A stretch of DNA of 64,000 nt, taken from the NCBI RefSeq assembly GCF_054482595.1, contig NZ_CM137008.1. One strand, written 5' to 3'. Of the stretch, positions 10,269 through 60,891 are shown one piece after another; positions within the stretch are counted from its first letter, which is position 1, and each line of letters starts with the position of its first letter. The notes beneath the pieces were generated by a model. The model did no database searches, was not told where the DNA came from, and saw only the letters and a program-made list of their open reading frames with translations. A program made the translations under genes and the position numbers.

Positions 10269-11010
<742 letters not shown>

Positions 11011-11512: not shown

Positions 11513-12307
11513 ATGGATCTGTTGTACCGGGTAAAAACGCTTTGGGCCGCGCTGCGCGGTAATCATTACTCCTGGCCTGCCATCGATATCACCCTCCCCG
11601 GCAATCGCCATTTTCATCTGATTGGCAGTATTCATATGGGTAGCCACGATATGGCTCCCCTGCCCGCCCGTTTGCTCAAAAAGCTCAAAAACGCCGATGC
11701 GCTGATCGTCGAGGCGGATGTTTCCACCAGCGATACGCCTTTTGCTAATTTGCCTGCCTGCGAGGCGCTGGAAGAGCGTATTAGCGAGGAGCAATTACAA
11801 AATCTGCAGCACATTAGCCAGGTGATGGGCATTTCTCCGTCACTCTTTTCTACCCAACCGCTGTGGCAAATCGCGATGGTTCTTCAGGCGACGCAGGCAC
11901 AAAAACTGGGGCTGCGGGCAGAATACGGTATCGATTACCAGTTATTGCAGGCGGCGAAGCAACAACATAAACCCGTGATTGAACTGGAAGGGGCTGAAAA
12001 CCAGATTGCCATGTTGCTCCAGCTCCCTGACAAAGGACTGGCGCTGCTGGACGATACGCTGACCCACTGGCATACCAACGCACGGTTGCTGCAACAAATG
12101 ATGAGCTGGTGGCTGAATGCGCCGCCGCAAAATAATGAAATAACGCTGCCCAATACGTTCAGTCAGTCGCTGTACGATGTGCTGATGCATCAGCGAAATC
12201 TCGCCTGGCGGGATAAATTACGCGCCATGCCGCCGGGGCGATATGTGGTCGCGGTCGGTGCACTACACCTGTATGGAGAAGGGAATTTGCCGCAAATGTT
12301 GCGCTAA
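11513..12307 (+). CDS. ybaP: TraB/GumN-family protein YbaP
   Basis: 264-aa ORF with preceding SD (aaagggaggtcgt ATG); conserved position between ybaQ and ybaK. Confidence 0.88.
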   Translation: MDLLYRVKTLWAALRGNHYSWPAIDITLPGNRHFHLIGSIHMGSHDMAPLPARLLKKLKNADALIVEADVSTSDTPFANLPACEALEERISEEQLQNLQHISQVMGISPSLFSTQPLWQIAMVLQATQAQKLGLRAEYGIDYQLLQAAKQQHKPVIELEGAENQIAMLLQLPDKGLALLDDTLTHWHTNARLLQQMMSWWLNAPPQNNEITLPNTFSQSLYDVLMHQRNLAWRDKLRAMPPGRYVVAVGALHLYGEGNLPQMLR

Positions 12308-12389
12308 AAAAATGGCCAATATCGCTATTGGCCCGTCAAAGAGGAATTTCATTTTTTTATTATTATGCCGTCACTTTAAGCGACGGTGT
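12305..12389 (-). ncRNA. chiX: ChiX (MicM/SroB) Hfq-dependent small RNA
   Basis: Minus strand reads ACACCGTCGCTTAAAGTGACGGCATAATAATAAAAAAATGAAATTCCTCTTTGACGGGCCAATAGCGATATTGGCCATTTTTTT, matching recalled ChiX with its terminator hairpin and U-tract. Confidence 0.85.
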
Positions 12390-25569: not shown

Positions 25570-27501
25570 TCAAATGGGGCGGATACTTTCTTCATCCAGC
25601 TCCGCATCGAAGAACCGACGCAGGGTCTGAATATTATTATCCGCAATAATGGACTCGCGCGCCTGCGCAAGTTTTTCTTCGTATATCGCCTGACGCCACT
25701 CCAGCGGCGTACGCACCGCGGGATTATCATCTTCAACGATAGTCAGTTCAACCGTTGAACCTTTTAACGTGCTCAACGCTTCAGCCAGTTTTTGCTGTGC
25801 ACCGCGGTTGTTCAAATGCCGCTGAGAGGAGCGCAAATGCAGACATACTGCGTTGTCGCTCTCCTCTTTCCAGGCATTTAAGGCCACCTGTTCGACCAGT
25901 TTTGGTAGCGAAAGTTGACTCACCTGTGCCGCCCACGCGTCGCGCTCAATGGCTTCTGCCGCCAGCTTCGCCGCCAGTTCCGGCGTTTTTTCATGTTCCA
26001 GCGCTTTTTTCAGCGCCTTCGGCGTGGCGACCACTTCTTTTTGCTGCATCACTGGAGTGGTAGCCTTCCAGCGATACGCTTCTTTTTTGGCTGGCGCTTT
26101 TTCCAGCGCCGATGGCACCGGACGCGCCTGAACGCGATCGGTGACCGAAGCCAGTCTTTCCAGCGCAGCGTTATTCACCGGCCGCGCGCGGGTAGCGGCT
26201 GCCGGTTCACTCTTTTTTGCTTTGGTTGCTCCCTGCACGCGCTGCAACTGCTGGCGCGCCGCCAGCACCTGGCTGGTGGTTTCCGGGAGCGGTACAGTCG
26301 GTGCCTGCTGCGGCGCTGATTGCGGTTGCGGCGGCACCTGGGTTGGCGTCATTACTGCCGTTGGCGCGACGGGCGCAAAGGACTGGCGTGGCACTTCTGG
26401 CTCAGGCAGAGGCATACGTGGATGGAACGCCAGCGCGCGCAGCAGCGTCATCTCAACGCCCATGCGGCGGTCCGGCGCATACGGTAATTCTTTGCGACCA
26501 ATCAACAGCGTCTGATAGTAAAGCTGAATATCCGTCGGCGGTATGGTGCGCGCCAGTTCACGCATCCGCAGCTCAATGGCGGCCATGTCGTTGCCAAGTG
26601 CAGCAGGCGAAAGTTGTACCATCGCAATACGATGCAACAGGCCGAGCATTTCCACCAGCAACGCTTCCCACTCGATACCACGGGCAGCGGCTTCATTAAT
26701 CAGCGCCATTACGCGCTCGCCGTTGGCCTCGACCATCGCTTCAACCAGCGACAGCGCCTGATCGTCGTCAAGCGTACCCAGCATCGCACTGACTGCCTGG
26801 GTTGAAACCTGGCCGTCACCGCTGGCAATCGCCTGGTCGGTCAGACTTAAGGCATCTCGCAGGCTGCCTTCAGCGGCGCGCGCCAGCAATTGCAACGCCC
26901 GCGGCTCGTGAGCGATATGTTCTTCGTTGAGGATGTGCTCAAGTTGATGGCGAATTTGCTCGACATCCAGCGCCTTGAGATGAAATTGCAAACAGCGCGA
27001 CAAAATCGTCACCGGCAATTTCTGTGGATCGGTCGTCGCCAGCAGAAACTTAACGTGCTCCGGCGGCTCTTCAAGGGTTTTTAACAGTGCGTTAAAGCTG
27101 TGGCGCGACAGCATATGCACTTCGTCGATCAGATAAACTTTGAAACGACCACGCGCCGGAGCGTACTGGACGTTATCCAGCAGGTCGCGGGTATCTTCAA
27201 CTTTGGTGCGCGAGGCGGCGTCGATTTCAATCAGATCGACAAAGCGCCCCTGCTCGATTTCACGACAGTTATCGCACACGCCGCACGGCGTCGCGGTAAT
27301 GCCGGTTTCGCAGTTTAGCCCCTTCGCCAGCAGTCGGGCGATAGAGGTTTTTCCGACGCCACGGGTACCGGAAAAAAGATAAGCATGATGAATACGCCCT
27401 AACGACAAGCCGTTCGCCAGTGCGGTCAGCACATGTTCCTGGCCGACGACGTCAGCAAAGGTTTGTGGGCGCCATTTTCGGGCTAAGACCTGATAACTCA
27501 T
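25570..27501 (-). CDS. dnaX: DNA polymerase III subunits tau/gamma
   Basis: 643-aa ORF; AAA+ Walker A GTRGVGKTS, Walker B DEVH, zinc module CGVCDNC. Confidence 0.97.
   Translation of the reverse strand: MSYQVLARKWRPQTFADVVGQEHVLTALANGLSLGRIHHAYLFSGTRGVGKTSIARLLAKGLNCETGITATPCGVCDNCREIEQGRFVDLIEIDAASRTKVEDTRDLLDNVQYAPARGRFKVYLIDEVHMLSRHSFNALLKTLEEPPEHVKFLLATTDPQKLPVTILSRCLQFHLKALDVEQIRHQLEHILNEEHIAHEPRALQLLARAAEGSLRDALSLTDQAIASGDGQVSTQAVSAMLGTLDDDQALSLVEAMVEANGERVMALINEAAARGIEWEALLVEMLGLLHRIAMVQLSPAALGNDMAAIELRMRELARTIPPTDIQLYYQTLLIGRKELPYAPDRRMGVEMTLLRALAFHPRMPLPEPEVPRQSFAPVAPTAVMTPTQVPPQPQSAPQQAPTVPLPETTSQVLAARQQLQRVQGATKAKKSEPAAATRARPVNNAALERLASVTDRVQARPVPSALEKAPAKKEAYRWKATTPVMQQKEVVATPKALKKALEHEKTPELAAKLAAEAIERDAWAAQVSQLSLPKLVEQVALNAWKEESDNAVCLHLRSSQRHLNNRGAQQKLAEALSTLKGSTVELTIVEDDNPAVRTPLEWRQAIYEEKLAQARESIIADNNIQTLRRFFDAELDEESIRPI
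26205..26218 (-). other. dnaX: dnaX programmed -1 frameshift site that yields gamma
   Basis: Minus strand reads GCA AAA AAG AGU GAA: heptamer A_AAA_AAG in frame (..ATKAKKSEP..), with UGA in the -1 frame directly after. Confidence 0.9.
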
Positions 27502-43030: not shown

Positions 43031-43144
43031 GGGTGGGGGCCCTGCCAGCTACATCCCGGCACACGCGTCATCTGCCTTGGCTGCTTCCTTCCGGACCTGA
43101 CCTGGTAAACAGAGTAGCGTTGCGGGAGAACCAACAGAGCCCCC
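43031..43144 (-). ncRNA. ffs: 4.5S RNA (signal recognition particle RNA)
   Basis: Minus strand reads GGGGGCUCUGUUGGUUCUCCCGCAACGCUACUCUGUUUACCAGGUCAGGUCCGGAAGGAAGCAGCCAAGGCAGAUGACGCGUGUGCCGGGAUGUAGCUGGCAGGGCCCCCACCC; ends +/-1 nt. Confidence 0.95.
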
Positions 43145-60704: not shown

Positions 60705-60787
60705 AGAGCTCTCTCTTAGTTTAATTTCCGCCAGGTAATCAGATGACACGACTGTGCTTCACGCCATCTATTAACATGTACGTCAGT

Positions 60788-60816
60788 ATATGGGGATGTT
60801 TCCCCCACATTCAACG
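60788..60816 (-). promoter_or_regulatory. Sigma-32 heat-shock promoter of lon
   Basis: Minus strand GCGTTGAATGTGGGGGAAACATCCCCATATACTGACG: TTGAA (-35) and CCCCATAT (-10). Confidence 0.8.
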
Positions 60817-60864
60817 CCGAGAATAGAGGAAAAATTAAAGGGGAGATAAAATCCCCCCTTTTTG
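60808..60864 (+). ncRNA. Candidate small RNA in the clpX-lon spacer (possibly SraA), ending at a plus-strand terminator
   Basis: Plus-strand hairpin aaaggggagataaaatcccccc followed by tttttgg at 60836-60864; position matches my recollection of sraA in the clpX-lon intergenic region, antisense to the lon promoter. Confidence 0.35.
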
Positions 60865-60891
60865 GTTAACTAATTGTATGGGAATGGTTAA

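Follow-up and report, generated by a model that had tools for sequence, protein, structure and literature searches.

The dnaX frameshift element ranks among the principal models in the study of ribosomal frameshifting, and it sets the 1:1 ratio of tau to gamma in the clamp loader of the replicative polymerase. In Escherichia coli K-12, approximately 50% of ribosomes shift at dnaX and terminate one codon later (PMC5009743). The sole tRNA-Lys of E. coli (mnm5s2U34) serves both AAA and AAG codons and its pairing with AAG is comparatively weak, hence the dnaX site is highly shift-prone (PMC5009743). A Shine-Dalgarno (SD) tract acts as a major stimulator of this shift (PMC5009743), whilst a hairpin at the mRNA entrance inhibits translocation and A-site tRNA binding, its deletion having reduced frameshifting in vitro from approximately 60% to approximately 25% (PMC7282821).

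Frameshifting in IS911 and the IS3 family, and in HIV-1 gag-pol, likewise involves an X_XXY_YYZ heptamer and a 3' RNA structure, and IS elements often also carry a 5' SD-like stimulator, as does dnaX (PMC5009743; PMC7282821). In the IS911/IS3-family and HIV-1 cases, however, shifted ribosomes extend into a new ORF to give a fusion protein, at lower efficiency, whereas in dnaX the shifted ribosome meets a stop one codon on, giving a truncated product at approximately 50%. The dnaX genes of Thermus thermophilus and Caulobacter crescentus arrive at the same outcome, tau plus a shorter gamma, via transcriptional slippage and ClpXP proteolysis, respectively (PMC5009743).

Here we describe the dnaX locus in a 64,000-nucleotide stretch of contig NZ_CM137008.1 (RefSeq assembly GCF_054482595.1), referred to below as the window. 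It is as good as certain that this locus carries the programmed -1 ribosomal frameshift cassette of E. coli dnaX; no observation speaks against this reading, though single tests are of limited strength. Relative to the K-12 cassette (Rfam family RF00382), the gene, the heptamer and its phase, the Glu-stop of the -1 frame, the AGGGAG tract at 10 nt, the AGUGA linker and the hairpin are all the same, with no difference found within the element itself; the 16 of 1509 compared bases that differ in the surrounding gene, the nearest to the element being at CDS positions 1128 and 1440, represent ordinary strain variation. The element is real, very probably functional and already known, and is a textbook and ordinary example of its kind. 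Its parts are as follows.

25570..27501, minus strand: dnaX zero-frame ORF encoding tau, 643 aa (ORF list; NCBIfam NF005942; 100% identity to RefSeq E. coli dnaX copies)
26207..27501, minus strand: gamma-coding span, 431 aa, read in the zero frame up to codon 430 and as GAG-UGA in the -1 frame thereafter (simulated -1 shift)
26173..26237, minus strand: whole frameshift cassette, Rfam RF00382, DnaX ribosomal frameshifting element (covariance-model match)
26229..26234, minus strand: putative internal SD-like stimulator AGGGAG, exactly 10 nt 5' of the heptamer (position, spacer)
26212..26218, minus strand: slippery heptamer A_AAA_AAG, formed by the last base of Ala428 with Lys429 and Lys430 (sequence, phase)
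26207..26212, minus strand: -1 frame codons GAG (Glu431 of gamma) and UGA stop (simulated -1 shift)
26177..26206, minus strand: putative 3' stimulatory stem-loop (Rfam consensus structure; minimum free energy (MFE) and centroid folds)

The dnaX reading frame and its recoding signal

A first-pass annotation of the window had identified the gene as dnaX, and this was confirmed by a profile search in which residues 1-643 matched NCBIfam NF005942 ('DNA polymerase III subunit gamma/tau') with 982 bits against a cutoff of 613. The protein begins MSYQVLARKWRPQTF, and its ORF is the sole long ORF that crosses the frameshift site, which falls at codons 428-430 of 643, approximately two-thirds of the way along dnaX. 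The whole gene is 100% identical to copies in several RefSeq genomes of E. coli.

The minus-strand sequence from 26220 to 26206 reads GCA AAA AAG AGU GAA, preceded by ..ACCAAA and followed by CCG, and places the codons GCA at 26220-26218, AAA at 26217-26215, AAG at 26214-26212, AGU at 26211-26209 and GAA at 26208-26206, so that the frame and coordinates initially given for this segment agree with both the sequence and the ORF. The distance 27501-26220 = 1281 = 3x427 makes GCA codon 428, so that the heptamer opens on the third base of a codon (26218). The same codon arithmetic bears out the placement of A_AAA_AAG at ..AKKSEP.. in slippery phase, and a scripted check returned the phase A_AAA_AAG, matching X_XXY_YYZ of the zero frame.

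In the -1 frame the heptamer leads directly into GAG (26212..26210) and UGA (26209..26207), and the 5-nt linker AGUGA occupies 26211..26207 on the same strand. AGUGA is the linker named as wild-type in PMC7282821. The UGA that the first-pass annotation had noted after the heptamer in this frame is present one codon on, from which a gamma of 431 aa is predicted, with a C-terminus of ..KAKKE after scripted translation of the -1 shift. The simulated product and the joined gamma CDS in K-12 MG1655 agree in length, the 1295-nt span together with one re-read base giving 432 codons with the stop. The span originally marked for the element, 26205..26218, takes in the heptamer and the -1 stop, with two more bases.

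The -2 (equivalent to +1) frame also closes after the heptamer, at a UGA 12 codons on (26177..26175, minus strand). This stop shares a base with the hairpin, namely the last one of the 3' arm, and a stop at this place was found in 63 of 75 species sequences and is therefore not universal.

When searched against Rfam release 15, the cassette matched RF00382 with 96.8 bits (gathering score 35; E = 5.8e-20) over model positions 1-65 of 65, with the same hairpin. These 65 nt are identical to those of K-12 MG1655, in which the frameshift has been shown experimentally (PMC5009743; PMC7282821), and the earlier description of the site as intact accordingly stands. A second assertion, that such an element is invisible to ORF-based annotation, is correct for a bare ORF caller and incorrect for current annotation, given that RefSeq/PGAP labels exactly these 65 nt 'DnaX frameshifting element' and that the K-12 MG1655 record carries a tau CDS and a separate gamma CDS joined from two pieces. 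Annotation of the window should likewise carry the joined gamma CDS (27501..26212 and 26212..26207) besides the tau ORF.

Matches to dnaX were retrieved from 5424 of 5426 complete E. coli genomes, and in 5372 of these 5424 the 65-nt element was at least 99% identical. The remaining 52 genomes had 95-99% identity within the element, and may be artefacts of assembly or labelling, or else carry rare variants of a recoding signal that is essential. The same may apply to the two genomes that returned no dnaX match, and to two further genomes in which the match was situated on a plasmid-labelled record. The element described here adds nothing new, being identical to that of K-12, essentially fixed across E. 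coli, represented by an Rfam family and annotated by RefSeq; its practical value is one of quality control, in that the dnaX recoding signal is intact in this strain.

Conservation of the cassette among Enterobacteriaceae

A protein-guided scan with one genome per species was utilised to collect 80 dnaX loci of Enterobacteriaceae, with DnaX identities ranging from 79% to 99%. The in-phase A_AAA_AAG was kept in all 80 species, as was the Glu-stop ('E*') of the -1 frame. Across the genera sampled, including Salmonella, Citrobacter, Enterobacter, Klebsiella, Cedecea and others, the heptamer, its phase, the Glu-stop, the CCGGC/GCCGG lower stem and the spacings were the same as in the window (80/80).

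Lys429 was encoded by AAA and Lys430 by AAG in all 81 sequences, and in none had these synonymous codons been exchanged, whilst the amino acids beside the heptamer vary, codons 426-428 and 436-438 being subject to residue changes. Such invariance of the Lys codons amid changing residues indicates a constraint at the RNA level that would overlie a weakly constrained segment of the protein. Of 645 nine-codon windows of dnaX, that of codons 426-434 ranked first for low synonymous diversity, with 0.074 where the mean over the gene was 0.419. The depression extended from approximately codon 423 to codon 441, corresponding to the region from the SD tract to the 3' stem arm, after which diversity was at background.

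The first-pass annotation had suggested looking for an SD-like element about 10 nt 5' of the heptamer, and AGGGAG is situated at exactly 10 nt. No rRNA gene is present within the window, and the duplex was computed with the textbook anti-SD sequence, that is, the established 3' end of 16S rRNA. A 6-bp duplex of -7.4 kcal/mol is predicted; as a duplex of this energy or better is formed by 9.6% of 22-nt windows of dnaX, its energy is weak as a stand-alone test, and it is the fixed 10-nt spacing and the conservation that count. In 76 of the 80 species an SD pattern was matched 10-11 nt upstream of the heptamer. In the four species that the pattern missed, the tract reads AGGGGG (twice), AAGGAA or AGGGTG, and a duplex with the anti-SD is nonetheless predicted, at -5.4 to -9.4 kcal/mol. 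Synonymous diversity is likewise low where the AGGGAG tract lies, at codons 423-424.

The 3' hairpin and a longer-range fold

Folding of about 26140-26205 had been suggested as a check for a stem-loop, and a hairpin was found in the upper part of that stretch, at 26177..26206, beginning 5 nt 3' of the heptamer. The predicted structure has 11 bp in all and is bulged. Its lower stem of 6 bp (ACCGGC/GCCGGU) is followed by an unpaired A, then by an upper stem of 5 bp with a bulged C (GCCGC/GCG-c-GC) closed by the loop UACCC. The hairpin was both the MFE and the centroid structure in folds of 81 nt and of 35 nt, with a predicted energy of -19.1 kcal/mol. Relative to shuffled sequences, the hairpin alone (35 nt) gave a modest z-score of -2.14, and the 81-nt context was no more stable than its shuffles (z = -0.63), the latter not being significant because the whole region is G+C-rich. 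The 81-nt z-score was accordingly set aside in judging the hairpin, for which conservation and the covariance model are the stronger tests.

Conservation was assessed with an alignment of 75 species sequences. In this alignment 92.7% of cells were paired for the canonical hairpin, and the closing pair was A-U in 66 sequences, G-C in eight and G-U in one. Six of the 10-11 stem pairs were invariant, and are thus uninformative on covariation. From these sequence comparisons, support for the hairpin from covariation appears real but thin, since the compensatory closing pair is confined to eight sequences with very similar hairpins, which are likely to be close relatives, and may represent a single event. 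These eight sequences include those of Cedecea and Buttiauxella species, and part of them carry a stronger AGGAGG at 11 nt.

A single consensus for the upper stem was rejected, as two registers exist: 26 and 22 sequences were unpaired at columns 44-57 and 45-56, respectively, and the same numbers pair in the shifted register 44-58 and 45-57. The upper stem was hence judged by folding each sequence separately. All species sequences that were folded gave a hairpin in this position, with predicted energies of -18.4 to -23.9 kcal/mol that clustered near -19. Two architectures of the upper stem were apparent within the Enterobacteriaceae, the one being the bulged 5 bp with a 5-nt loop that is found in the window, and the other, present in many other members of the family, consisting of 4 bp with an 8-nt loop. 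The latter is the Enterobacter/Lelliottia type.

The two architectures are nearly equal in predicted stability, at approximately -19 kcal/mol. One could imagine that the stability or geometry of the hairpin is kept constant by selection whilst the sequence turns over, and that the gamma:tau ratio is thereby held at a set point, though we consider the idea unlikely. If true, it would be at most a comparative confirmation, as programmed efficiency is already found in the literature on the dnaX hairpin.

It was also considered that the true 3' stimulator might be a longer-range structure, pairing across 26210..26141, rather than the local 30-nt hairpin. Such a structure was the MFE of folds of 72 nt and 112 nt (-32.8 and -53.5 kcal/mol; z about -2), yet its ensemble frequency was low in both (0.06 and 0.04), and several of its pairs are broken in most species, namely 33-104 in 42 of 75 sequences, 41-98 in 45 and 50-90 in 55. 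Covariation of pair types was no better than in shuffles (364/500), although the structure was derived from the window's own sequence, and synonymous constraint had returned to background after codon 443, a point inside the longer-range structure. The local hairpin, by contrast, is the structure utilised by both the Rfam family and published work. The longer-range pairing was therefore rejected as a conserved stimulator on the basis of the 75 species sequences, and the chance that it is the true stimulator is very slight. With 72-112 nt of 3' context (26100..26211, minus strand), the MFE structure consisted of this longer-range pairing followed by two further local hairpins.

Routes to gamma and other RNA elements of the window

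For each sequence element of the cassette, our analysis of the window showed directly that it is present and conserved, and what its phase and spacing are. For slippage itself, its approximately 50% efficiency and the roles of the SD tract and hairpin, the case is strong but indirect, as it derives by analogy from literature on the identical K-12 sequence. By this analogy, ribosomes would reach A_AAA_AAG with tRNA-Lys on AAA in the P site and on AAG in the A site, and on the heptamer both tRNA-Lys could slip back by one base and pair anew with AAA AAA. During elongation, the 3' end of the ribosome's 16S rRNA would pair with AGGGAG, 10 nt upstream, whilst the G+C-rich hairpin 5 nt downstream, at the mRNA entrance, would slow translocation and A-site tRNA binding. 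Shifted ribosomes would then release a gamma of 431 aa that is without the C-terminal domains of tau, and those that do not shift would continue to produce tau of 643 aa. No tRNA genes were found within the window.

The heptamer might alternatively be a chance Lys-Lys codon pair that has no recoding role, with the conservation nearby reflecting protein-coding constraint on tau alone. The motif AAAAAAG is indeed common: the window contains 21, where 13.7 +/- 4.1 would be expected, and 5 of 100 shuffles reached that number. For this reason its count was dropped as evidence and weight was instead placed on phase and context. Two further copies are within dnaX itself (first bases 26088 and 26010). 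Their phase is 0, which is not slippery, leaving the copy at the frameshift site as the only one of the gene in X_XXY_YYZ phase. It is the complete cassette, rather than the bare heptamer, that is above chance, with its Rfam match of E = 5.8e-20 and its retention in 80 of 80 species, the -1 Glu-stop included. Furthermore, a constraint on tau alone sits poorly with AAA/AAG codons fixed in 81 of 81 sequences, at the lowest synonymous diversity of the gene, between flanking residues that vary. Experiments on the identical K-12 sequence have already refuted a chance origin (PMC5009743; PMC7282821), and we regard it as wholly implausible.

Gamma could also be generated by RNA polymerase slipping on the A run during transcription or by proteolysis of tau, with the heptamer incidental, since both routes exist in other bacteria (PMC5009743) and stops are near in both non-zero frames (one codon on in -1, 12 in -2), but this is equally implausible, as the run in the window is A6 where described slippage involves runs of nine A or T (PMC5009743), the conserved SD-like tract and the hairpin, at fixed distances of 10 nt and 5 nt, suit a ribosome and not an RNA polymerase or a protease, and gamma is known to arise from this very sequence by ribosomal frameshifting. 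The window thus differs in mechanism from the dnaX genes of T. thermophilus and C. crescentus, having A6 instead of A9 together with ribosome-directed stimulators.

Besides the frameshift cassette, Rfam searches identified the following RNA elements in the window.

10324..11007, minus strand: seven head-to-tail copies of Rfam RF02564 (naRNA4/CssrE, a REP-type palindromic element), with a 101-nt period and 79-89 bits
18069..18146, minus strand: a lone RF02564 copy, 7 kb from the array (Rfam)
12306..12389, minus strand: sroB small RNA (Rfam, 82.1 bits, above gathering score)
43040..43136, minus strand: 4.5S/SRP RNA (Rfam, 68.1 bits, above gathering score)
60776..60871, plus strand: sraA small RNA (Rfam, 106.7 bits, above gathering score)

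The order of sraA, sroB and the 4.5S RNA relative to dnaX agrees with the K-12 map of the E. coli chromosome in reverse orientation. Some of the RF02564 copies also score on the plus strand, as expected for palindromic REP units.
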